From: a virus
Taxonomy: Duplodnaviria > Caudoviricetes
Length of the DNA stretch: 59,374 nucleotides
Strand: one strand, 5' to 3'
IMG/VR virus record: IMGVR_UViG_3300046010_004673
Location: 1-59,374 of that record
How positions within the stretch are numbered: position 1 is the stretch's first letter; every line of letters starts with the position of its first letter. Positions 15,393 through 43,593 of this stretch are shown one piece after another. The notes under the pieces are model-generated. The model saw only the letters and a program-made list of their open reading frames with translations, did not search any database and was not told the origin of the DNA. Both the position numbers and the translations under genes were made by a program.

Positions 15393-18300
15393 ATGGCAAC
15401 TATCGCGGATATTCGTAAGAAGTATCCTCAGTACAATGACCTTTCTGACCGGGAACTTGCAGAAGGCTTTCATCGAAACTTCTACAGCGATATCCCGTTC
15501 GACGATTTTGCACAACGGATTGGACTAGAAGAGCGCACTGTCCTTGGCCAGATAGGTCAGACGTTTAAAGCGGTCCCGCGTGGCATTGCCAACACGGTTC
15601 TGTCCACTGGCGAGGGTCTGGCGGAACTGGCTGACGCAGCCACCAACTTGGTTGGCGCGGAAGGTCTGATTGATTCCGGCGATGAGAATGCTTTGGTCAA
15701 GGCTTCTCGGGAAGGCCGTGACTGGATTGCGAACAGCGCACTTGGCGCAGATCCCTCCTACCAAGATGCTTGGTTCACCAAGTTCGGTGAAGGCGCTGGA
15801 TCGATGCTCACGTTCCTCGCCCCGGTGGGAATCCTCCGTGGACTGGGGGCAGCAGGCAAAGCGATCCCCAAACTTGGTACTTCGGCACGGGAACTGGCTC
15901 TGACGGGAACCCTTGCAACAGGCTCGGGCGCAGGCGAACAAGCGCAGCGTGTTGAAGCAGCGCGGGCGCAAGGACTCGAAGTTACCCAAGGCGAAGAGGA
16001 CGCAGCCGTTGGACTTGGCGGATTGATCGGGCTATCTGAGATTGCCCCGATTGCATCGATCCTCAAGCGGGTTCCCAAGAATGTCACGCCTGCACAGAAG
16101 TCTCGGATACTGGATCTTCTGCAGAAGTCCATCCGTGGTGGTGCAGAAGAAGCGGTGCAAGAATCTGCTGCAGGATTGCTGCAGGACTTCACCGAGAAAG
16201 GAATCTACAACCCTGATCTCGCTGTCGGAGAATCGTTCTGGGACGATCTGACCGTTGGTGGTGCTGTCGGTGCGTTCGCAGATTTCGTGGTCAATGCTGC
16301 CGCAGGACGGCGCAGTTTCATCACCACCGAAGCACAGCGTGAGTACGAGGCTCAAGCCCGTCAACGTGAACAGGCGAACATCGAGAAGATCCGCCAGTCT
16401 CTGGCTACCGAGGCGGAGCGCAGAGCAAACATACAGGCTGACCCGGAAGGGTTCACTAAAGCCGCCGCACAGGCTCAGGCAGCGGCTGCAGGGGTTGCTC
16501 CGCCAACCGGTGAAGGTCCGCCAGTACAACGCGGTGGAGCCTATGCCCGTGCGATCTCCAATCAGTTGGGCGACTATTTCCCAACCAACACTAAGTTTGA
16601 AGTTAAGCCGGGTCCGTCAAAGCAAGGGCCAGAAGGTCAGACCTTAACCACCCATGTGGTAGTGGACTCAGCCGGGAATCAATACGGCCAAGCACTCGAC
16701 AGTTACGAAGAAGCCATTGGTCTTGCCTATGGTTTAAACACAGAAGTAATAGATCAACAGGTTCGGGGCCAAGTTCTCAATACCCTTGAGACTTCGGGTC
16801 AGGCTTACGATCAGGTCACTGCAGACACCCTGACCCGGTACGGTGTCCAGATCCTGAGTCCTGATCGGAACCTCATCACTTCCGCTGCCATCAACGAGGC
16901 TGCTGGAACCACTGCCGACAAAGGCTACATCGAGAACTACGGTTTCCAGACCATTCTCAATGGCGAAAAGACCAAGGATGGTTATGTTGTTCAAGGTCCG
17001 AATCAACGGCCCGTCACAGTTCCCGGACTGACGCTCTCTCAACAGATCAACCAGAAGCGTAAAGAGCAGGGACTGCCTGAGACCCAGACCTTCACTGTGG
17101 ATGAAGCCCGTGAAGCGTTGGGCGATAAGTTCGAGCGATTGACCGACATCAATGTCGCAGCGATCCCGGACAACTTGTCTTACACCGCGACTGTTATCAA
17201 CGGCAAACCCTCTGTTGTCAGCGCAGCCAACGAAGTTTTCACTTCCCGTTTTGCCAGCGCAGAAGACAGCGAGGCTTCTGGCAAGAACGAAGACGGCACA
17301 CCGAAGATCAAGGTGGGTCAGAAGATTGAACTGAAGTCCTTGGAAGATGCTCAGGCTTTTGCTGAACGCAAGAACAAAGAAGCCGCCAAAGGACAGGGTT
17401 TGTCCACACAGGAAATCAACGAAATCCTGAAGGGCAAGAAGACACTGAACGATGAGATCACTCGGCTGCTCAAGTCGAAGAACATCGGATCAGAAATTGA
17501 TACACCCGAAATCAAGACGCTGTTTAAATCAATTGTCGGGAAAGAATCACTGGCCGACATGTCGTTCGGTGAACAGCGGTTGTTGTACGCCCGTCTGCGT
17601 ACGCTCCCCATGTTCGAGGCGACCACCAAGTTGCCGGTGTTCGAGGCCAAGCCGTACACCCGAGACAACTTCCTTGCGGCATCCAAGTTCGTGCAAGACG
17701 CGAACTCGTTGGGTCAATCAATCACTGACGATCAGATCGCACAGGCTGCGGGCATTCTGCCCAATGACGAACGCAAGGATGTCAAGGTCGAAGCGATCAA
17801 GGCTGAACTTGTCAAGCAAGGGGTTCCCGTAACCAAAGCGGTCAAGCCTGTTCTGGCTCTGCCTGCTCCGACTGGAACCACTGACACCTACAACTTCCTG
17901 CGAGAAGAAATTCGCAAGAAGATGAAAGGGTTCGGGTTGGACGATATCGCTACCCGTATCGATCAGACCCTGCTCAACTTCGGTGACCCTGTCCGATACA
18001 TGCAGGAGATGGGCGCTGAAACGGAAGGCTATTACAACCCGTTCCTGCGCGAGATTACCTTGGCGGTGGATCGTATTGATCCGCAGAAGACGCTGACTCC
18101 AGAGCAGCGCGTCAATGCGTTGGCCGATGTACTGAACCACGAGATCGTTCACCCTGTACGGGAACTGGATCTGTGGACGGGGCAGGAATGGGACACGTTG
18201 TCCAATGCTGCAGCCAGACTGAAGCGTAAGGACGAACAGGGCAAAGACACCGGCCAGACTTATCTGGAATGGGCGCGTCAGAACTACGCTGATCAAAGTC

Positions 18301-21300
18301 CGTTGGTGCAGGAAGAAGAGTCAGTAGCAGACCTGTCACGTCAGGCCAAGAAGTTTGGTGCCAAAGCGGTCGCGGGCAAGCCCAAAGTTCTGGCTGACAA
18401 ACTGTTTAAATTCTTCGACCGACTCGACAACTCGTTCCGTGGTGCTGGGTTCCAGTCGTACTCCGACATCTTGGATCGTCTGCAGTCCGGTGAAGTGGGT
18501 GCGCGTACCCGTGGCGAAATCAGAACGCTCCGTGCTACGGAAGCAGAGATGGCGCAGCAGGGCGTGTTGCCTGAGCGGTTCAGTGACTACCAGCCGATCC
18601 TTGCCACCCCGGTGGTGCGGAACCAAGAGCGCGAGAAGAAGAAGGTCGAGGTCCAACAGAAAGCACAGGCTGCTGGTGTCACCGACTTCAACCCGAATGC
18701 CCTCGAAGGCGCAGCGATTCGTGAGTCTCGACGCGCTATCGAGAACATCCCGAAGACTATCGATGTCGATGGGGTGGTTAAACTCACTGACGACTCAGAA
18801 GGTAGGGCTATCTATTCCGGTTACGAAGGACCGGAACTGTTCGGCATGGAAACCGCGCCGACACAGCAAGGGTTGCGTAACTTCTGGAACTGGTTTGGCA
18901 ACAGCAAGGCTGTAGATAATTCCAAGCGCCCACTGGTTTACTACCATGGAACCGCTGGCGATATCACAGCGTTCCGTCCGAAACAGGCAGGATCTGTATT
19001 CATCACTCGCAATCCAGAGTTTGCAAAAACATTCTCTGATTTGTCTAGCGAGTACATGATCGATAACTTCACTGATTTTATAAGTAATCAGGAAGTTTTG
19101 AATGTACTGAATGAATCGATGCGTAGTAGCACTACGCCAAAGTTCTACGACAAACTTGAAGCCATCCAAAAGAAAGTATCTGCCGCTGTTCAAAGCGGAC
19201 AGCCTTTAAGTGGAAATCTGCTTTCTGATATTAAGGATCTTTATCAGACATCTGGCGTTAGTTCGAAGATGGTAGAGAGCATTAAGTCAAGAATGCCTAC
19301 CAACGCCAACATAGTTCCGGTGTATGTCAAAGCAGAGAATCCTTTTGATTACGAAAACAAGCAGCACATTAGAGATGTTCTGAAGAAGATCGATGAAACT
19401 TCTGCACTTGAATTGGATTCAGGCCAGATTGAAGGATTGAAGAAAGGCGACTGGACTGCTGTTGAAAGCCCTGTGATTCTTAATGCAATTAAGAGTCTTG
19501 GATTTGACAGCATGTATGTCGAAGAGATGGACGAGAAGAACCTCGCCGTCTTCGACCCCAGTCAAGTTAAGTCTGCCATTGGCAACAACGGACAGTTCGG
19601 CCCCACTCCCAGCATTCGGGAGTCGCGTATCTCTTCTCCGGGCCTGTTTGAACAGGCTGACATTGGGATCAATGTTCGATCTGATCAAAAATCAGGCTTG
19701 CGTTATGCGGACGAAATTATTGATGGGAATAAAAAATACGAGACTAGAGACAGCGATTCATTACGACCTTATGTCGGCAAACGTATTGCGATTGTCCGTA
19801 CTGGTGAAGGCACGGCAAAAGCCATAGGAGAAGTCACAGTTGGAGAGCCGATCCTTGTAAATGAGACGCAGTTTAACGAAATGCGTTCAGAGCATTTAGT
19901 TCCTGCCGGTAGCACTTTTGACATTAAGCCCGGATCTAAAAAGTATCTGTATCCGATGCTAAATCCTGTGCGCTTTGATGAAGAAAAAGATGTTGGTGCA
20001 GGGATCGTTGCTCGTAAGGTTATTGATAAAAGTGCCGGCATTCGCGAGTCTCGCCGCAGTCCCAATGTTGTTAGCCTGATGAGCAATCAGGAGCAGCCGC
20101 CTCGCAAACTTACCGGCAAGACGCAGGTTGCTCAGTTCCTGCAAGACCGTGCGCTGGAAGCATTGGGCGGTCGTCCGCGTAATTTAAACAACGAAACAGA
20201 TCGCGATGCTATTGCTGATGATCTCGTTGAGGAAGCCCTTTACGAGATGGAAGCGCAGAAGAATGCGTTGGAGTGGTACGACTCCACCATCGAGCGCACC
20301 ATTGAAATGATGTCGCTCCGGCATCCGGAGATTAAGACTGACCCCAATGCTCGCACTGCATTCCTTGTCAGCCTTGCGGTGACTTCGCAGAACCTCGCGG
20401 TTCCTGACAACCTCAAGTACTCCGAGGAAGTTTACAACCACTTCAAGCGTAACCGCCGGTTCCCAGAGAAAGGGTTCGGATCTAAGGCGGGTTCCATCAA
20501 GCGCAACTTCGAAAAAGCAAATATGCTGATCGATGAGTTGGGTTCGATGGAAGCGTTCACTGATTTCCTGCAGACCGAGTTCACCGTTGGTCAGTTGAAT
20601 CCCATCCTCAAGGGACACCTTGGAAAGAAAGCCAAGGTCGGTGGCGAACTGGTTGGCGCAAAGGTCTATGGCTCTGCAGTCTTCGGACCCAAGATCGGCA
20701 ACGGTTTCTACACCAATCTTCGCGGCGACTTCAGCCCGGTCACCATCGACATGTGGTTCATGCGAACCATTGGTCGCTTGCGCGGCAAGGTCATGGACTT
20801 CGATGAGAAGAAGTTCGGCAAACAGTTGGAGCGTCTTGCCAAAGCGGAGGGCATGGAAGGCGCATCAGTAGATGACTTGGTTGCGCGAGCCACTCAACTG
20901 CAGAAGCAGCATGAGAAGGACTTTAAACAGTTCCGCGCCGAGTACGATGCGGGCATTCGCAAGAAGTCGGAAGCCACAAACGCTGCCATCACCATTGTCA
21001 AATCGCTGAAAGCGACTCGTGATGCTCCTTCTACGGGAACCGAGCGCGATCAACTTCGTGATATCGTCAATCGTGCGGTCAATAAAATGCGTGACCGTAC
21101 CGGACAGGATATTTCACCTGCTGCATTTCAAGCGTTGATCTGGTATCCTGAGCAAGATTTATATAAGAAACTTGGTGTCAAGTTAAAACACGTCAGGCAG
21201 GACTATGCAAATAGCACAAAGCAATTTCTCCGCCGAGAAGGAATCGATGAGCGAGAACTCAAGCGAGCCGAGGATCGGGTTCGGAGCCGCCGACAACGTG

Positions 21301-24242
21301 GAGCAAAACGAGTTCGACCGGGAGCAGTTGGAGATGTCGAAGCCGCAGTTGCGCCAACAGGTGAAGGAGTTGGTGCGCCTCTACAAGGCGCAGAAGCAGC
21401 CCCGTTAATTCGTGAATCCCGCATTGCCCCTCGTCCAGAGGTGCAGTTGCAGGATGCAGCGAAGAAGGCTCAGGCCAACATCGACCGCACCCCCACTGGT
21501 GCGATCCCACTCTACAATTTAAACGCATCGCCTGATGCGCTGTATGTTGCCCAGAATCCTGAGGCTGGCGAACAGTTCGATGCACAAGATTTGATTCGTT
21601 ACTCGCGAACAAACACGCCGCAGTACAGCACTGGCGTACAACAGATCATCGACAAGTTAGCGACTGCCCCGCCAAATCAAACGCCGGGACAAACGGTGAT
21701 TGGTGCAGTGCAGTTGCCGCCACTTCGAAACATGATCGATAAGTTTCGACAGAACTGGATCTTCAACTACTCACGTCTTGAGTATTACAACCAGATGCAT
21801 CCAAGCCTGATCAACAATCTGGCGGATGTCAGTTCGTTGGCTGGCGCTGAGATGGCAGATCGCAGCAAAGCGATCACTGCTTCTGCGATCACAGATGGGG
21901 TTCCCGTATACCGTAATGGAACGGTTCGTGTGGAACCCTTTGTCCATAACAATCGTGAGTACAAAGGACTCATCGATGTGATGGCTCCTCTGTTCAATAA
22001 CCCTTACGGCAACTTGGAAGAACTCGCTCAGTCTTACGCGATCATGGTTCGCAGCATGAGACTGAAAGCGGAAGGCAAACAAGCGCCCGGTGATCCGGCA
22101 GACTTCCCAAGGTTGCAAGCAGAGGTTCGCAGGTTCACCAATCCTGCGACCGGGAACTCGATCATCGAAGAATGGTATGACGCATGGCAGGCGTACAACG
22201 CCTACACCGTGCAATTCCTGCGCGATACCGGAATGATCGATGATGCTGGCGCACAGTTGTGGCTGCAGCAGTCTGACTATGTTCCGTTCTATCGTGAGAC
22301 GGCAGCAAACGCCAAGACTTTCCCGAAGATCTTCGGTGGTTTAACCGCGACCACCCATCTCAAGGCTGTAGGTAAAAGCGAAGAAGCCATTAACATTCCT
22401 TTGCTTGAAGCAGTGCTGACCAATCTTGATGCCGCGATTGGCATGGGCATGAGGAACGTGGCACAGCAGCGCATCGTTCGCGACATGATCCAGATTGGTA
22501 TGGGCCGCATGGTGCAGCCCGGTCAGGCTATCGAAGGTCAGAACACTGTCACCTTCAAAGTTGCAGGCAAGAAGTACACCGCGTTCATTGATGATCCGTT
22601 GATCTTCGAATCCATGCAGGCCATGCCTGACATGGGTGCAGCAGGTCTTCTGGAAGATGTATTCAGGGTTCCCGCAACCGTACTCCGCGAACTGATTGTG
22701 CGTGAGCCGGGATACATGATCGCCAACATGCTGCGCGATACCGCATCTGTAGCCCTGACAAGCGGCGCAAACATCATCCCTGTCTACGATACGGTTCGCA
22801 ATTTCAACAGCGGCCTAGAGAATCTGCGTCGGTATGGCGTGGTCGGTGGCTATGACTTCGCCCGTGATCCTGAAGATATGGTTTCGTATCTGGCTGATGA
22901 AGCCAAGAAGCGCGGACATCAGATCCCGGTGGACTACGACAGCAAACTGAAAGGCTTTGCGAAGTCCAAGTACATGCGCCCGTTGATGGCAGCATGGGAT
23001 GCACTCGGTGGAATCTCCGACAAAGCCGAAGCATCAACCCGTAACGCTGTGTATCAGGACACACTGAAGCGCACAGGCAACGAAGCCGAAGCGGTATATC
23101 AGGCTTTGTCTGTGATCAACTACGGACGGCGCGGAAGATATCCTGCAATCAGAGCCATCACTGCATCGGTTCCATTCTTGAATGCTCGCATCCAAGGTCT
23201 CGATAAGTTGTATCAGGCTGGCACTGGAACATCTGGAAAGTTTAAAGATCGCCGCAAAAACATTGGCAACTTTGCATTCCGTGCTGGACTCATGGTTGGA
23301 CTCACGGGTTTGTACTATGCGCTCGTCTCTGACGATGAAGAGTACAAGAACGCCAACCCTGAGGTAGTGGATAACTACTACATCTTGCCGGTGAAGAACG
23401 GCGACCCCGCGAAGGGTGAGAAAGGTCTGGCGATTCGTATCCCGATTCCGTTCGAAGTGGGTCTGTTGTTCAAGACTATCCCCGAGCGAATCATGCGTCG
23501 GTACTACGATGTCGATGTGGCACGGGACACAGAACAGTCACTGAAACGTGCTGTGTTTTCTACTCTTGCGTTTAACCCTGTTCCGCAGGCGGTGCTGCCG
23601 ATTGCGGAAGTCATTGCCAATTACGATACGTTCACGGGTCGAACCATCATCCCCCCGTACATGGATGAACGAATGGCGGCTGAGTATCAGGCTCGGTTTG
23701 GAACCAATGAGTTTGCCCGTATGTTGGGCGAAGCCACTGGCTTCTCTCCCATCAAGATCGATCATCTGATGAATGGTTACTTGGGAACCATCGGTACTTA
23801 CACACTGGATGCTATTGACCATGTGTTGCGTGACACTGATCGGATGTATCCGACACGGGAACCCTATCAGTATCCGTTCGTGCGTCGGTTCTTTGCAGAC
23901 AGCAATCAGCCGGGACTACAAACTCAGTACTACGATCTTTACAAGGAAGTGGGCAAGGTCACCAACACCATTCGTTCGCTGCGAGAAGACGGGCGCGTCG
24001 ATGAACTGAATGCCTATCTCATGGAGAACCAATCCATACTTGGCATCAAGTCAGGGGTGGATGTCCTCAACAAGCGGATGAAACAGTATCGCGATCAGAA
24101 GGAAGCGGTACTCAAATCCACGCTTGATCCTGAGGTGAAGAAGGAACTGATCGATGATCTGGATGCCAGCATCAATCAGACCCTGCAAGTGGTTCCCATC
24201 CTGAAGAGAGCGGCATACAGTGAGCAGAGACAAGCAGGCTAG
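15393..24242 (+). CDS. Large polyvalent protein (2949 aa): zincin HExxH, ART-like, ASCH-like, HhH-glycosylase-like and LPD38-like domains
   Basis: HEIVH at 18138; PLVYYHGT...VPVYVKAENP...AVFDPSQVKSAIGNNG; ADEIIDGNKKYETR; GPKIG...VTIDMW; IRIPIPFEVG...ANYDTFTGRTI...SPIKIDHL. Confidence 0.75.
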   Translation: MATIADIRKKYPQYNDLSDRELAEGFHRNFYSDIPFDDFAQRIGLEERTVLGQIGQTFKAVPRGIANTVLSTGEGLAELADAATNLVGAEGLIDSGDENALVKASREGRDWIANSALGADPSYQDAWFTKFGEGAGSMLTFLAPVGILRGLGAAGKAIPKLGTSARELALTGTLATGSGAGEQAQRVEAARAQGLEVTQGEEDAAVGLGGLIGLSEIAPIASILKRVPKNVTPAQKSRILDLLQKSIRGGAEEAVQESAAGLLQDFTEKGIYNPDLAVGESFWDDLTVGGAVGAFADFVVNAAAGRRSFITTEAQREYEAQARQREQANIEKIRQSLATEAERRANIQADPEGFTKAAAQAQAAAAGVAPPTGEGPPVQRGGAYARAISNQLGDYFPTNTKFEVKPGPSKQGPEGQTLTTHVVVDSAGNQYGQALDSYEEAIGLAYGLNTEVIDQQVRGQVLNTLETSGQAYDQVTADTLTRYGVQILSPDRNLITSAAINEAAGTTADKGYIENYGFQTILNGEKTKDGYVVQGPNQRPVTVPGLTLSQQINQKRKEQGLPETQTFTVDEAREALGDKFERLTDINVAAIPDNLSYTATVINGKPSVVSAANEVFTSRFASAEDSEASGKNEDGTPKIKVGQKIELKSLEDAQAFAERKNKEAAKGQGLSTQEINEILKGKKTLNDEITRLLKSKNIGSEIDTPEIKTLFKSIVGKESLADMSFGEQRLLYARLRTLPMFEATTKLPVFEAKPYTRDNFLAASKFVQDANSLGQSITDDQIAQAAGILPNDERKDVKVEAIKAELVKQGVPVTKAVKPVLALPAPTGTTDTYNFLREEIRKKMKGFGLDDIATRIDQTLLNFGDPVRYMQEMGAETEGYYNPFLREITLAVDRIDPQKTLTPEQRVNALADVLNHEIVHPVRELDLWTGQEWDTLSNAAARLKRKDEQGKDTGQTYLEWARQNYADQSPLVQEEESVADLSRQAKKFGAKAVAGKPKVLADKLFKFFDRLDNSFRGAGFQSYSDILDRLQSGEVGARTRGEIRTLRATEAEMAQQGVLPERFSDYQPILATPVVRNQEREKKKVEVQQKAQAAGVTDFNPNALEGAAIRESRRAIENIPKTIDVDGVVKLTDDSEGRAIYSGYEGPELFGMETAPTQQGLRNFWNWFGNSKAVDNSKRPLVYYHGTAGDITAFRPKQAGSVFITRNPEFAKTFSDLSSEYMIDNFTDFISNQEVLNVLNESMRSSTTPKFYDKLEAIQKKVSAAVQSGQPLSGNLLSDIKDLYQTSGVSSKMVESIKSRMPTNANIVPVYVKAENPFDYENKQHIRDVLKKIDETSALELDSGQIEGLKKGDWTAVESPVILNAIKSLGFDSMYVEEMDEKNLAVFDPSQVKSAIGNNGQFGPTPSIRESRISSPGLFEQADIGINVRSDQKSGLRYADEIIDGNKKYETRDSDSLRPYVGKRIAIVRTGEGTAKAIGEVTVGEPILVNETQFNEMRSEHLVPAGSTFDIKPGSKKYLYPMLNPVRFDEEKDVGAGIVARKVIDKSAGIRESRRSPNVVSLMSNQEQPPRKLTGKTQVAQFLQDRALEALGGRPRNLNNETDRDAIADDLVEEALYEMEAQKNALEWYDSTIERTIEMMSLRHPEIKTDPNARTAFLVSLAVTSQNLAVPDNLKYSEEVYNHFKRNRRFPEKGFGSKAGSIKRNFEKANMLIDELGSMEAFTDFLQTEFTVGQLNPILKGHLGKKAKVGGELVGAKVYGSAVFGPKIGNGFYTNLRGDFSPVTIDMWFMRTIGRLRGKVMDFDEKKFGKQLERLAKAEGMEGASVDDLVARATQLQKQHEKDFKQFRAEYDAGIRKKSEATNAAITIVKSLKATRDAPSTGTERDQLRDIVNRAVNKMRDRTGQDISPAAFQALIWYPEQDLYKKLGVKLKHVRQDYANSTKQFLRREGIDERELKRAEDRVRSRRQRGAKRVRPGAVGDVEAAVAPTGEGVGAPLQGAEAAPLIRESRIAPRPEVQLQDAAKKAQANIDRTPTGAIPLYNLNASPDALYVAQNPEAGEQFDAQDLIRYSRTNTPQYSTGVQQIIDKLATAPPNQTPGQTVIGAVQLPPLRNMIDKFRQNWIFNYSRLEYYNQMHPSLINNLADVSSLAGAEMADRSKAITASAITDGVPVYRNGTVRVEPFVHNNREYKGLIDVMAPLFNNPYGNLEELAQSYAIMVRSMRLKAEGKQAPGDPADFPRLQAEVRRFTNPATGNSIIEEWYDAWQAYNAYTVQFLRDTGMIDDAGAQLWLQQSDYVPFYRETAANAKTFPKIFGGLTATTHLKAVGKSEEAINIPLLEAVLTNLDAAIGMGMRNVAQQRIVRDMIQIGMGRMVQPGQAIEGQNTVTFKVAGKKYTAFIDDPLIFESMQAMPDMGAAGLLEDVFRVPATVLRELIVREPGYMIANMLRDTASVALTSGANIIPVYDTVRNFNSGLENLRRYGVVGGYDFARDPEDMVSYLADEAKKRGHQIPVDYDSKLKGFAKSKYMRPLMAAWDALGGISDKAEASTRNAVYQDTLKRTGNEAEAVYQALSVINYGRRGRYPAIRAITASVPFLNARIQGLDKLYQAGTGTSGKFKDRRKNIGNFAFRAGLMVGLTGLYYALVSDDEEYKNANPEVVDNYYILPVKNGDPAKGEKGLAIRIPIPFEVGLLFKTIPERIMRRYYDVDVARDTEQSLKRAVFSTLAFNPVPQAVLPIAEVIANYDTFTGRTIIPPYMDERMAAEYQARFGTNEFARMLGEATGFSPIKIDHLMNGYLGTIGTYTLDAIDHVLRDTDRMYPTREPYQYPFVRRFFADSNQPGLQTQYYDLYKEVGKVTNTIRSLREDGRVDELNAYLMENQSILGIKSGVDVLNKRMKQYRDQKEAVLKSTLDPEVKKELIDDLDASINQTLQVVPILKRAAYSEQRQAG

Positions 24243-24576
24243 TCGGTACCTTGGCAAGGTCAAGGAACTCGACTGCGCTCTGTGTACGCTCTTGGGTCAA
24301 GGCCAGACCTCTGTCACCGAAGCCCACCACATCCGCACAGGGCATGGACTCGGCGACCGCGCAAGCGATTACCTGACTGTCGCTCTGTGTGTGGAATGTC
24401 ACCGTGGAACCCATGGATTCCATGGCACCAAAGCACTGATGAAGATCGCCAAACTATCCGAACTGGATCTGTTGGCTGAAACGATCCGCATGCTGGATGA
24501 AAAAAAGGGGGCTGGATTACAGCCCCCGAACTTTGCAGAAGATACCAACATGGACAGAGGAGCAACCGCTGTCTAG
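24220..24576 (+). CDS. Ref-like HNH/Zn-finger nuclease (recombination enhancement function family)
   Basis: CALC...EAHHIRTGHG...RASDYLTVALC..CHRG..GFH. Confidence 0.7.
   Translation: MSRDKQASRYLGKVKELDCALCTLLGQGQTSVTEAHHIRTGHGLGDRASDYLTVALCVECHRGTHGFHGTKALMKIAKLSELDLLAETIRMLDEKKGAGLQPPNFAEDTNMDRGATAV
24500..24527 (-). terminator. Intrinsic terminator for the leftward operon
   Basis: On the minus strand GGGGGCTG-taatc-CAGCCCCC followed by a T-tract, at the convergence point. Confidence 0.7.
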
Positions 24577-33855: not shown

Positions 33856-34042
33856 ACGCTACCAGTGGCTTTGGCAGCGGCTCTACAGAATCAATCGGGT
33901 CGATCCACCAATTTGGAAAGCGCGGCGCAGAAGTCTTTTCCGTCGGGCGAATGAGGCATGGGCTGAGTATTTAGACTCAGTCCAAATTCAACATGGCGAA
34001 AAAGAAAAAGCCCCCGACAGAAGAACTCCGCCGGGGGCTTGA
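33779..34042 (+). CDS. Possible hypothetical protein
   Basis: ORF overlapping the rusA 3' end; no recognisable motif. Confidence 0.3.
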   Translation: MSTMDSTSKTPEQKSKSLKSPEQALKRYQWLWQRLYRINRVDPPIWKARRRSLFRRANEAWAEYLDSVQIQHGEKEKAPDRRTPPGA

Positions 34043-36786: not shown

Positions 36787-36820
36787 AAAAAACCCGACAC
36801 CCTGTGACAGGTGCCGGGGT
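36785..36820 (-). terminator. Intrinsic terminator at a convergent junction
   Basis: On the minus strand CCCGGCACC...GGTGTCGGG followed by T8. Confidence 0.7.
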
Positions 36821-39687: not shown

Positions 39688-39717
39688 ATTATAGTTGATA
39701 ACGTGTTAGCAAGTCAA
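39688..39717 (-). promoter_or_regulatory. Early sigma70 promoter
   Basis: TTGACT-18 nt-TATAAT on the minus strand. Confidence 0.7.
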
Positions 39718-39736: not shown

Positions 39737-40528
39737 TCATGCCGCCGCCTCATTCCAGAGTTCCTGCACCTTCGCGATGGCTTGATCACGATCCCCGTAG
39801 GTCACGCGATCCGTGCCAATGGCGCGGAGGTTTAGGTCGCTCGCCTTGAGCGCATCGTCGTAGTGAGCGCAGCGGCCATAGCCGCTCAAAAATTGCGGGT
39901 ACAGCCACTCGACCACACGAAAGGCACAGCGGCGTAGCATCGATGGATGCGCGAGCGCAAAAGCCACTCGATCCATGTCGATGGGTTCCTCGGGACGTTT
40001 AACCGTGACCGACATCAGAATCCGGTCGTTGCCGCGACCCTCGATATGGCAGAACGCGACCAGTTCCACGCGCTGCCCCTCGCTCTGGATTTTGTCGATC
40101 AAAGCGACGACCGCAGCGCCGCGATTGATGATGTCCTGCGGGTCAACCCATCCGCTGCAGACGATGTTGACCGCGACTCGCACGATAGGTTTGGAGTTCG
40201 CAGCGCCGTCCTCAAGGGGAACGAACATGTCTTCGGGAACCCCCGCAGCGTAAGCAGGGATGCACGGGAACGCGCCCACTGGAGCGGACTCCCATGTTGG
40301 CCCTGCTTCGAAGGTCACCTTGACCGCAGCGGACTCGACCTGCTCAGTGGTGATGCGATCACCCTGCTCGGCCAGTTCGAGGCATTTTTCCCACGATGTC
40401 GAGCGGGTGAATTCGAAGCCGCCTTTGATGGATGACTGCTTGCCGTGCCATGCGGGTTGCACCGCACGGTCGCGCAAGTCACGCAGGAACTCATCCCATG
40501 AGTCCGCCGTGTAAACGTATTCGGTCAT
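39737..40528 (-). CDS. VWA-like partner of the AAA+ ATPase
   Basis: GAFPCIPAY.AG.PEDM; RGAAVVALID; VTVKRPEEP.D; HPSMLRR; degenerate MIDAS; coupled to the AAA gene. Confidence 0.55.
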   Translation of the reverse strand: MTEYVYTADSWDEFLRDLRDRAVQPAWHGKQSSIKGGFEFTRSTSWEKCLELAEQGDRITTEQVESAAVKVTFEAGPTWESAPVGAFPCIPAYAAGVPEDMFVPLEDGAANSKPIVRVAVNIVCSGWVDPQDIINRGAAVVALIDKIQSEGQRVELVAFCHIEGRGNDRILMSVTVKRPEEPIDMDRVAFALAHPSMLRRCAFRVVEWLYPQFLSGYGRCAHYDDALKASDLNLRAIGTDRVTYGDRDQAIAKVQELWNEAAA

Positions 40529-41538
40529 GATGCTGCCCTCCATTGATTTTCCTGCATGGTCGCCTTGACTTTGACGATGTCCGCCTCAGTCATCGACTTC
40601 CAGATGAGCGACTGCTCGACCTCTTCGCGAGAGAGTCCGGCACTCAGCAACTTGCCGCCCTTGATCGATGCGCGGGGACTGATGACATGCCGCAACTTGT
40701 GAGCGCGGACCGCCTTGCGAACCGCCTGCACATAGCGCGTCCACTCGTCGTTGCTGCTGATCGCGAGTTCCAACTTCTCGTCATAGTCCATGGTGATGAA
40801 CATGAATCGGTCGAGGAACGCATCGTCAAGTTTGACGCGACCGACATACTGCGCGTCAGCACCGTTCCCGAAGGTATTCGCAGCGGCGATGCAGACAAAG
40901 TCGGGGTGCTTTTTGACCGTGCCGTTGGGGAACGCTGCAACGTCATTGGAGAGAATGGCGTTGAAGGCGAGCAGTGCTTGAGTGGATGAGGCATCGACCT
41001 CGTCGAAGAGGAACACGCCGCCGCCCACATAAGCGCGGTACAGGTCAGTCTCCATGTACTTGCCTTCGGGGTTGATGAACCCCTGCAGTTGGTAGGCCAT
41101 GCCAACCGCGCCGGTCGAGTAGAACGGCAACCCAAGTGCCTCAGCGGCTTGAGTCGCGATGGTGGTTTTGCCGGAACCGGCAGGGCCAACCAGATACACG
41201 TTCTCGCGAACGGCCAGCGTAGTTAGAACCTTGGCGAACACCGGGTGACGGTGAGCAGTGGGCAGGACTTTGATTTCAGCACCCTGCTTGATTTCGATGC
41301 GAATCGGGCGATGCACTTCGACCGCAGCCACCGCAGCCTTGATGGCATCCTGCCGAATGCCCTCGATGGTCGCGGCGTCGAGTGAAGCGGCAGCGACCGG
41401 AGCGGGATCGACCCCGTTCCAGATCGCGAGCAGCACGTCATCCGGGCTGTTGGGCGACTTGCCCTGTCGCACCGCATGCATTTTGAGGTATGCGCGGTCA
41501 CTGTCGGACAGCGGCAGGGAGAATGAACGCTTTTCCAT
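40525..41538 (-). CDS. MoxR/CobS-like AAA+ ATPase
   Basis: GPAGSGKT; FLFDEVD; AANT; LDDAFLDRF; SPR. Confidence 0.85.
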   Translation of the reverse strand: MEKRSFSLPLSDSDRAYLKMHAVRQGKSPNSPDDVLLAIWNGVDPAPVAAASLDAATIEGIRQDAIKAAVAAVEVHRPIRIEIKQGAEIKVLPTAHRHPVFAKVLTTLAVRENVYLVGPAGSGKTTIATQAAEALGLPFYSTGAVGMAYQLQGFINPEGKYMETDLYRAYVGGGVFLFDEVDASSTQALLAFNAILSNDVAAFPNGTVKKHPDFVCIAAANTFGNGADAQYVGRVKLDDAFLDRFMFITMDYDEKLELAISSNDEWTRYVQAVRKAVRAHKLRHVISPRASIKGGKLLSAGLSREEVEQSLIWKSMTEADIVKVKATMQENQWRAAS

Positions 41539-41540
41539 GA

Positions 41541-42152
41541 TCAAGCCTCCAATTTGAGTGAGCCAACCGCAATGCAAACCGGGCAGGTCGATGCGGCGTG
41601 CAAACGATTGCCCTGCAGGGCTGAAACGCGAGCGGTCCAACCGCAGTCGCTGCATTGCAACTTCAGCAGGCGAGTGCCTTGTTTTTTGCGGGCGTTGGGA
41701 TCGACTTTGGCATGGGGGTACACGCCGAGGTCATGCACGATGCGTTGCAGGGTGCCGCGCAACTCGTCACCGGGAACCGTCGCAGTCATAGCGCCGACAA
41801 GGCCAATTGCACGGGCGACGGTGGCGAAGCGGCCACGGTGACCGCACTGAATGCCCGCCTCGACGTGGATCAACTCATGCGCGAGAACCGCGATGACATC
41901 GACCGGGTTGTCGAGGATCGGGTTGATGAACACCTCCATCGTGCCGTCCGCACTGATCGAGGGATCGAACGCCTGCCCAAGCGTCACCTTGCCGGTGCGC
42001 GAGCCGCGATACCCAATCGGGAACCCGCATGACACGCGGTACTTGTGACGCTCCCACGAAGCGGCATCGATACCGGCGACCGGGAAAACCTCATGCTGCA
42101 GCATCACTGCCGCAGCGGCGAGCCATGACTCGCGTTCGCTGAACTTCTGCAT
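41541..42152 (-). CDS. SprT-like zincin metalloprotease with Zn ribbon
   Basis: VLAHELIH...GHRGRF; CSDC...CPVC. Confidence 0.75.
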   Translation of the reverse strand: MQKFSERESWLAAAAVMLQHEVFPVAGIDAASWERHKYRVSCGFPIGYRGSRTGKVTLGQAFDPSISADGTMEVFINPILDNPVDVIAVLAHELIHVEAGIQCGHRGRFATVARAIGLVGAMTATVPGDELRGTLQRIVHDLGVYPHAKVDPNARKKQGTRLLKLQCSDCGWTARVSALQGNRLHAASTCPVCIAVGSLKLEA

Positions 42153-42184: not shown

Positions 42185-42214
42185 AGTGTAATCGACAACC
42201 TGTTAGGCTGTCAA
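42185..42214 (-). promoter_or_regulatory. Early sigma70 promoter
   Basis: TTGACA-18 nt-TACACT. Confidence 0.6.
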
Positions 42215-42274
42215 CGTGTAAACGGTCTCGTCAGTACCCGCATCACGGGCAGACCGGCTCACGCCGGTTTCGAC

Positions 42275-42547
42275 CTAGTTGATGTACTGAAAAACGAACG
42301 CATACCCGCTGCCGCCGGGATTGCTGTCGTAGCCGAGCAGCCGCAAAAGTCCCTTTTGGTTGTTGCGGTCGAGCAGTTCCCATGCGGCCTCCAAGTGCCG
42401 CTCCATCGAACCCAAGGCGTGGTTCGCGGGAACCGTTGCCTTCTTGCGGGTAAAGTTCGCAACCGATGCACCGATTCGCGAGCCGAGAACATTCGAGGGT
42501 GCAATGAACTTGGTGTAGATGATGACCAAATTGCTGTCGTGTTCCAT
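42275..42547 (-). CDS. Hypothetical early protein
   Basis: IYTKFIAPSN..GSRI.A...GYAFVF; GGAG RBS. Confidence 0.65.
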   Translation of the reverse strand: MEHDSNLVIIYTKFIAPSNVLGSRIGASVANFTRKKATVPANHALGSMERHLEAAWELLDRNNQKGLLRLLGYDSNPGGSGYAFVFQYIN

Positions 42548-42565
42548 TGTGTTTCTCCATCAGTT

Positions 42566-42840
42566 GGTGACTCAGTGCAACGCACCGCAGTGCGCTCCAC
42601 TCAATCATCAAGCATCGAACCCGTCACTTCGCATCGAGCGCCTCGTGGCGGGGCGGTGTATCGCGTGACGGGAGGGCCGTGCGTCCGGCATCACAGCCGG
42701 AAGGTGTCGGGACTCGCAAGCCGTGTCAGCGGCTCCACCTTTCGCGATCCTTTCGGGCCGGGGAGTTTTCACTCACTTGCGGTTGCCGTGGATCACTTCC
42801 ACCGGGGCGGTGCTTTTCGCTGTTCTCGCCGCCGGTGAAG
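42566..42840 (-). ncRNA. Candidate structured ncRNA or long 5' leader
   Basis: Several stems closed by GAAA and cUGCGg tetraloops in minus-strand sense, downstream of a promoter. Confidence 0.55.
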
Positions 42841-42843
42841 CGA

Positions 42844-42872
42844 ACTATCCGGATTTCATGGTCACATGTCAA
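42844..42872 (-). promoter_or_regulatory. Early sigma70 promoter
   Basis: TTGACA-17 nt-GATAGT. Confidence 0.55.
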
Positions 42873-43056: not shown

Positions 43057-43593
43057 ATGGCAGGTATCACTGACGAGTACGGGCTGACCGAAAAGCAGCG
43101 GAAATTCGCGGAAAACGTGGTTTCGGGTATGTCGATTGCGGATTCCTACAGGTATTCGTATGACGCGGGCGCAATGCAGCCTGCGACCGTGCAGCGTAGG
43201 GCGGCTGAATTGATGGTGAACGGCAAGGTCAAGGCATGCATGGAGGCGCTGGCAGCGGTTAGGAGGCGGCAGAGTGAGGCAACCACGGTCTCTGATCGGG
43301 ACATGCTGGTCACTCTGCTACGCAAGTGGAGTAAAGGGGACGAGTCTGCTACCAGTTCCCAACTGCGGGCCGCTGAACTGCTAGGCAAGGCATGCGGCCT
43401 CTACCGTGATGTCGTCGAGGATCACCGGGAACGCCCCGCCTCATTAGTAGCGGCAGAGTTGGAGGCGCGGCTTGCATCACTGCTGCAGCCTGTGCCGGTT
43501 GCTGCCCATTTAAACGTCGCTGATGCAGTGGAACAGGTTCCAGCAGAGCAGGTTCCCGTCGAGAATCACGGTCAATCTAGCCTAAGTCATTGA
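43057..43593 (+). CDS. terS: Terminase small subunit
   Basis: LTEKQRKFAENVVSG....DSYR.SY...AAELM.N.KV; AAELLGK..GLY. Confidence 0.8.
   Translation: MAGITDEYGLTEKQRKFAENVVSGMSIADSYRYSYDAGAMQPATVQRRAAELMVNGKVKACMEALAAVRRRQSEATTVSDRDMLVTLLRKWSKGDESATSSQLRAAELLGKACGLYRDVVEDHRERPASLVAAELEARLASLLQPVPVAAHLNVADAVEQVPAEQVPVENHGQSSLSH

Follow-up and report, generated by a model that had tools for sequence, protein, structure and literature searches.

Between the divergent promoter region of the phage genome studied here and its first early gene lie 300 nt of leader RNA, and the question raised by this locus is what that RNA is and what it does. To our knowledge, few structured RNAs of lytic phages have a known function, and hardly any have been described in the pelagiphage-related podoviruses that abound in water. 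The original prediction, made from the letters of the DNA, placed a highly structured minus-strand RNA of no recognised family at the start of the early transcript and offered an antiterminator, a decoy or a ribozyme as its role. A non-coding, strand-specific and conserved structured RNA was indeed found at the early 5' end, and none of the roles offered was singled out.

The leader, its strand and its genome

The window, that is, the whole stretch of DNA analysed (59,374 bp), is a complete phage genome with direct terminal repeats, and the nearest deposited phage by large terminase is Pelagibacter phage HTVC027P at 54% identity. Early-type genes form a leftward block on the minus strand that starts at about 42,850, and the terminase genes are read in the other direction (Table 1). 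The early block contains the 90-aa ORF (phrog_3199), a 203-aa protein (phrog_6361), a CobS-like AAA ATPase and a DUF7192 protein. The 203-aa protein carries a HELIH motif, with CxxC pairs close to its end. A polyvalent protein of 2,949 aa, encoded at 15393-24242 (+), contains ADP-ribosyltransferase, ASCH and LPD38 domains. Two promoter-like sequences were seen inside the early block on the minus strand, TTGACA-18-TACACT at 42185-42214, shortly past the hammerhead described below, and TTGACT-18-TATAAT at 39688-39717, which scores 11/12. Three strong terminator-like hairpins with T runs were seen on the minus strand, at 36793-36818, 34008-34040 and 24507-24527, of which the one at 36793-36818 is probably the end of the early block. 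A simple consensus scan of the minus strand between the leader and 36818..36793 detected no intrinsic terminator.

Table 1 Features of the leader and the early block in the window, with coordinates given in the direction of reading where written with two dots

Feature	Position	Strand	Remarks
Small terminase gene, TerS	43057-43593	+	TerL likewise rightward on the plus strand
Sigma-70-type early promoter, TTGACA-17-GATAGT	42872..42844	-	10/12 against the consensus
Class A RNA core, 188 nt	42843..42656	-	covariance model R1: 131.2 bits, E = 4e-39
P1, 5'-terminal hairpin CACCGG...CCGGUG with inner extension	42837..42800	-	helices 1 and 2
P2-P2a-P2b-P3 arm	42796..42744	-	GUG/CGC closing, CGG/CCG, CCG/CGG, tip GAGU-GAAA-ACUC; helices 3 to 6
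P3 hairpin GAGU-GAAA-ACUC	42774..42763	-	kept across 17 homologues
P4 arm AGGUG/CACCU	42740..42702	-	encloses a variable insert hairpin; helix 7
P5 hairpin UCCGGC-UGUGAU-GCCGGA	42701..42684	-	helix 8; both-side changes in 2/5 pairs
P6/P6a hairpin CGC-ACGG...CCGU...GCG with invariant AUACAC tail	42683..42656	-	helices 9 and 10; no variation
P7, optional hairpin CCCGCCAC...GUGACGGG	42652..42620	-	one C-A mismatch in the window; arms covary
T1, long irregular hairpin of ~18 pairs	42607..42568	-	G-G mismatch, 2x2 internal loop; 9 nt upstream of GGAG
GGAG ribosome-binding site	42558..42555	-	serves the 90-aa ORF
First early ORF, 90 aa	42547..42275	-	ATG 42547..42545; phrog_3199 match, E = 1.6e-6
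Type II hammerhead, directly after the 90-aa ORF	42276..42223	-	predicted cut 3' of C at 42252
Conserved early trio: 203-aa protein, CobS-like AAA_5 ATPase (phrog_249), DUF7192 protein	39737-42152	-

The promoter from which the leader had been predicted to start, TTGACA-17-GATAGT, was recovered by a promoter scan on the minus strand. Its -35 and -10 hexamers stand at a fixed spacing from P1 in the homologues of the leader, which are referred to as class A, and transcription is inferred from the sequence to start at about 42836-42838 (-). Minus-strand RNA 42845..42548 folded at -123.9 kcal/mol (z = -3.02), as well as which none of 200 dinucleotide shuffles folded, and the plus-strand fold of the leader gave z = -1.41 with 17/200 shuffles as good, so the structure exceeds that expected from composition and is stronger in the direction in which the promoter reads. 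The class A alignment contains 11 G-U cells, which on the complementary strand would be A-C; the minus strand is therefore the folded strand, and the claim of a highly structured RNA in that sense is borne out. Small shares of the sequence were present in three sequencing runs. In an RNA-library run, a 194-nt contig from a relative spanned 42663-42853 only, at a depth of 3.35; this contig extends past the predicted start and may stem from DNA or from an assembly-graph break.

The leader is non-coding. All three sense frames contain at least one stop in 17/17 class A leaders, and core lengths among homologues (156, 175, 177, 179, 180, 181, 188, 189 and 190 nt) differ by non-multiples of three, so a protein-coding signal across the interval, which would have spoken against the prediction, was sought and not found. 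Five ORFs overlap the leader, none of which matched a family in Pfam at E <= 0.1 or in PHROGs at E <= 0.01, the one PHROG row having E = 0.054. Rfam 15 was compared with the whole window at gathering thresholds, at which no family matched anywhere, and at E <= 5, which gave no match in the leader; a search of 1 kb at E <= 10 gave nothing inside 42548-42845. The impression that it belongs to no known family thus stands as far as Rfam 15 is concerned. Rfam searches of ten relatives' loci returned hammerhead matches only, and no tRNA or tmRNA was found. A packaging RNA of the phi29 type was considered and rejected; Rfam contains a pRNA model, which had no match here, and the genome has TerS, TerL and direct terminal repeats. 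No published description of the class A RNA was found in those portions of the phage structured-RNA, hammerhead and RAGATH literature that were available.

A conserved fold with compensatory changes

Homologues of the leader were searched in 27 loci that encode a relative of the 203-aa protein and in 28 that encode a relative of TerS, and a pattern made from its most conserved stretch matched 7 viral loci and 12 metagenome loci. Eleven of the 12 metagenome loci carry the class A RNA, and the twelfth, L069, is a chance match. A scan of species genomes with the pattern gave three matches of 16-17 bits with model R1, the same as L069, and these were read as chance. A second class A pattern, placed on the P3-P4 junction, returned six loci, all known already. 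After removal of identical copies, 17 distinct class A sequences were available, one of which ends at a contig edge. In a blastn comparison with 50,697 deposited phages, the class A region and a class B region (see below) were both without a match, so no cultured carrier is known.

The structure model was drawn by eye from the alignment, checked on nine sequences and built as covariance model R1. For the main pair count all 17 sequences were aligned to R1, so that 99.2% of 639 cells pairing is a value from an alignment fitted to the proposed structure; the shuffle mean was 92.9%, and none of 500 shuffles reached the observed value. Changes on both sides were found at 12/39 pairs (43 cells), again reached by 0/500 shuffles, although the class A sequences group into few sub-lineages and the independent changes are therefore fewer than the cells counted. 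Seven of the 10 helices contain at least one compensatory pair. When partners were slid by 1-3 columns as a control, pairing fell to 31-37%, and a plain MAFFT alignment folded with RNAalifold, which is not fitted to the model, gave 30 pairs, 7 of them compensatory. The covariation among homologues on which the prediction had been made to depend is thus present. In the alignment 58 of 196 columns are invariant, many of them unpaired, which argues for a specific tertiary fold or partner and against generic stability.

Three of the hairpins named in the original prediction, CACCGG/CCGGUG (P1), GAGU-GAAA-ACUC (P3) and UCCGGC/GCCGGA (P5), are kept in the 17 distinct homologues with compensatory changes at their apical pairs. 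In P1, both-side changes occur in 3/4 pairs of helix 1, and helix 2 has G-C and G-U. The P2-P3 arm varies at pair 74/99 (CG:8, UA:8 in the 17-sequence alignment) and pair 84/92 (CG:6, GC:5, AU:3). A further predicted hairpin, CC-GAAA-GG (42756..42749), was replaced in the model, since its CCG pairs instead with CGG at 42788..42786 (CG:8, GC:4, AU:3, the tally of pair 67/104 of the P2-P3 arm) and its GG is missing in three relatives. The outer pair of P4 is GC:12, AU:3 and GU:2, and the insert hairpin occurs in two forms and is missing in L015. The search pattern fixed the P6 and tail bases, so the invariance of helices 9 and 10 is uninformative on their pairing. A search for complementary covariation outside the nested class A model, as pseudoknots would leave, gave lineage-correlated column pairs only. 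A 5'-3' closing helix UCGC/GCGA, present in the single-sequence fold, was rejected because its 5' side varies uncompensated; that side probably lies upstream of the transcription start.

Between the core and the message, P7 is present in 11/17 class A members (3 with the short and 8 with the long form) and absent in 6/17. A long-range pairing CCCGUCAC/GUGACGGG had been proposed, and the family-wide partner of its 3' arm proved to be the local CCCGCCAC, that is, P7: among the 11 members with P7, full pairing was found in 9/11 for P7 and in 6/11, the window included, for the long-range alternative. In the window (42620-42672, -) and in L066, the P6a strand is a perfect complement of the P7 3' arm, whose local partner has a C-A mismatch in both, and a P7/P6a conformer is a possible alternative, judging from these sequences.

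Exchange of modules in the leader slot

The slot upstream of the early genes is occupied in all 19 close relatives with upstream sequence, by class A in 6 and by a second RNA, class B, in 13. Class B is about 200 nt long and has an unrelated fold (for example L005:974-1179, and 14 other loci). The nearest relatives by the 203-aa protein differ in this respect, L002 (95%) having class B and L003 (93%) class A. Fifteen of the 16 distinct class B sequences were aligned without fitting to a structure, one truncated sequence being left out; in this alignment 99.0% of cells pair and 11/40 pairs are compensatory, and on this evidence the support for class B is equal to that for class A. A loop-to-stem pseudoknot of CCAGA with UCUGG is possible in class B. 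The comparison of class B with Rfam gave no family match. Conserved words common to the two classes amount to three 6-mers only, and with no shared motif a common binding partner is not indicated.

Chimeric leaders, in which a class A-type P1 (CACCGG-GCAA loop-CCGG) is followed by class B, were seen in L002, L019, L060 and L080 and also in L086, L089, L091 and L098; with a class A-type P1 standing ahead of class B cores, P1 behaves as a separate 5' module. In L082, L085, L087, L088, L093 and L099, a sigma-70-like promoter lies about 330 nt upstream of T1 and is followed by class B and T1, and these promoters adjoin a divergent gene and not the usual TerS neighbourhood. At least 8 different, mutually unrelated first ORFs follow class A, which argues against a regulator specific to one gene.

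The terminal hairpin T1 had been predicted as an extended hairpin, and this is supported by 21 distinct sequences, found with a regular expression that fixed parts of the T1 arms, in which 95.4% of cells pair and 7/18 pairs are compensatory. Its UNCG-type loop, to which the prediction had drawn attention, is unconserved among the homologues. T1 occurs after class A (11/17 members) and also after class B, and no further copies of its arms were found in the window. RNase III sites of the T7 type are irregular hairpins that span some two helical turns, contain an internal loop and lie between transcript segments. T1 has this shape and position and is a candidate processing site, although cleavage of the RNase III type is a guess read from its shape. 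A scan of viral contigs with the T1 pattern for a third RNA class gave none, with 24 loci found, of which the 12 examined were all class B; of the other 12, 10 lie on contigs already typed as A or B, L097 was assigned by its record name to the contig of L013, and L092 is untyped.

The separator between core and message differs in kind and keeps its position. After the class A core it is T1 in 11/17 members, another long irregular hairpin (T2) in 3/17 and a type II hammerhead in 3/17. T2 was seen in L064, L074 and L075, 87-133 nt past the core, in the place of T1. What separates class A from the gene of the 203-aa protein is T1 in L066, whereas L018 and L015 have a hammerhead there, which in L018 lies 5 nt past the core. 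The hammerhead at this junction in L018 and L015 could reflect a mere deletion of the first gene, with no equivalence to T1.

The hammerhead of the window scored 31.6 bits with Rfam RF02276, below the gathering score of 37 (E = 2.8e-4 over 1 kb), and has a complete core of GAAAC, GUC and CUGACGAG. It reads GGUC-GAAAC-[CCGGC GUGA GCCGG]-UC/-[stem I]-CUGACGAG-ACC, and the features of type II are all present in the sequence (CUGANGA, GAAA and a UH triplet, with stems I and III capped and stem II open). Among relatives there are 32 distinct hammerheads, whose cores are invariant and whose stems I and III covary; they number 1 to 4 per carrying locus and all lie on the operon strand (e.g. L005 1429-2924). 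Arrays of type II hammerheads, described beside genes of phage and prophage transcripts, have been proposed to cut polycistronic phage transcripts into gene-length mRNAs (PMC3088659), and the hammerhead array is an already known kind of arrangement.

Possible roles of the RNA

Judged by its context, the RNA is more likely to be a separate, processed molecule than a leader that regulates one particular gene. Our preferred reading, to which we give a probability of about 0.45, is a stand-alone early RNA that is cut from the mRNA at T1. Host RNA polymerase would initiate at the sigma-70-type promoter, and the first product would be a many-armed RNA composed of P1, the P2-P3 arm, the branched P4, P5, P6 and, in this phage, P7; this module is tied to the promoter and transcription unit and to no particular gene. 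A double-strand-specific nuclease of the RNase III type would cut T1 and separate the RNA from the downstream message, and in some relatives a self-cleaving hammerhead would take over this job. This would release a free-standing RNA of some 240-270 nt, with a hairpin at either end, which would act alone soon after infection, most probably through binding to a protein of the host or the phage. In this scheme the cut at T1, the build-up of the RNA and its effect in trans are all inferred. In phages of the L018 type the release would follow from hammerhead chemistry, if the ribozyme is active, and in the window it depends on T1 being a site of the RNase III type. A further reading, speculative and in our judgement unlikely, is that A and B are unrelated folds for one protein-independent task in the first moments of infection, exchanged in the manner of anti-defence genes. 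Such a task could be that of a decoy that disarms a defence or RNA-binding factor of the host, of a new large ribozyme or of a polymerase-modifying RNA, and on this reading the A and B cassettes would be swapped between a common promoter upstream and a common cleavage module downstream.

The RNA might instead work in cis, much as HK022 put or EAR does: the nascent transcript would act on the elongating polymerase, or would protect the leader from Rho, so that every downstream early gene is transcribed regardless of its identity. A location directly after the early promoter, independence of the identity of the first gene and the sharing of one slot by two alternative folds are all in keeping with such an element, and an untranslated leader as long as this one (~290 nt) is an obvious target of Rho. 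We nevertheless consider it unlikely, since the simple scan of the minus strand found no intrinsic terminator before 36818..36793, the hammerhead 5 nt past the core in L018 would sever the RNA from the polymerase, and generic shielding from Rho would need fewer invariant unpaired bases. The 5'-terminal hairpin in both classes and the processing-type elements ahead of each gene would also suit a plain stabiliser or insulator, which would give the mRNA a protected, context-independent 5' end and leave the cut-off piece functionless. For that purpose a simple hairpin would suffice. The invariance of 58/196 columns, a good many of which are unpaired, and the upkeep of two elaborate folds, each about 190 nt long, make a stabiliser alone rather improbable.

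Unrelated folds interchange in one slot among riboswitch classes, and A and B could on that pattern be two aptamer classes for one ligand that gate the early operon; the highly conserved junctions and the two possible partners of the P7 3' arm in the window point the same way. We hold this to be very unlikely, given that there is no conserved expression platform (6/17 members lack P7, and T1, T2 or a hammerhead can form the boundary), the minus strand has no terminator-like site after the leader, GGAG is unpaired and hence not sequestered in the predicted fold, and the downstream genes are mutually unrelated and form no single pathway. New ribozyme classes have been met beside hammerhead-associated genes (the RAGATH motifs), and unrelated ribozyme classes replace one another at equivalent sites, so a new self-cleaving or otherwise catalytic RNA has to be weighed as well. 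No Rfam ribozyme model matches, however, a separate cleavage-type element is already present after the core, and the core exceeds most small ribozymes in size, and we put the chance of catalysis very low indeed. That the stretch is structured by chance, codes for protein or acts as a site at the DNA level is extremely improbable: in 10/17 members one antisense frame runs open across the leader, and the window has a 220-aa antisense ORF, but that ORF and the other four overlapping ones have no family match at E <= 0.01, lengths fall off multiples of three, the compensatory changes and slid controls speak for pairing, and the G-U pairs become A-C on the other strand.

The stand-alone RNA preferred here can be set beside several known systems. 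The early leader of T7 is alike in its early promoter for the host polymerase, its long untranslated leader, the irregular hairpin before the first early gene and first genes that serve accessory or host-takeover functions; it differs in that it is not known to have a conserved multi-helix fold, where a covarying RNA of about 190 nt is found here, and in having further hairpin sites where the present operon has hammerheads. The put RNA of HK022 and other RNA antiterminators likewise lie directly downstream of early promoters, consist of RNA only and are bound to the transcription unit, but put has two stem-loops in about 70 nt and is tethered to the polymerase, whereas the RNA here has five arms in about 190 nt, no terminator nearby and, in one relative, a hammerhead directly after it. 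The CI RNA of P4 and the C4 RNA of P1 and P7 are also small RNAs that are cut from a phage operon leader and act alone; unlike the RNA here, they are antisense immunity RNAs of about 70-80 nt from temperate elements and are released by RNase P. The hammerhead arrays of PMC3088659 are alike in that short genes on one strand are interspersed with several type II hammerheads, and the available part of that source covers ribozymes and no large structured RNA heading the operon (the window copy scores 31.6 against 37). In another study, 8,495 short candidate RNAs were predicted from IMG/VR 3.0 (PMC10690425), which resemble the present RNAs in their collection of origin and in resting on covariation in phage intergenic regions; its models are 29-151 nt long, compared with about 190 nt for class A and class B, and some of these candidates may overlap parts of class A, class B or T1.

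For this whole phage group, one of two elaborate RNAs would be the very first product of infection, made ahead of early genes that change from phage to phage. If the RNA acts on its own, it would be a new kind of early agent of host takeover or counter-defence, and if it acts in cis, it would be a new RNA-only transcription device. Either way, two defined families of about 190 nt are available for work on structure and function, and the operon is a natural example of gene cassettes insulated by ribozymes.
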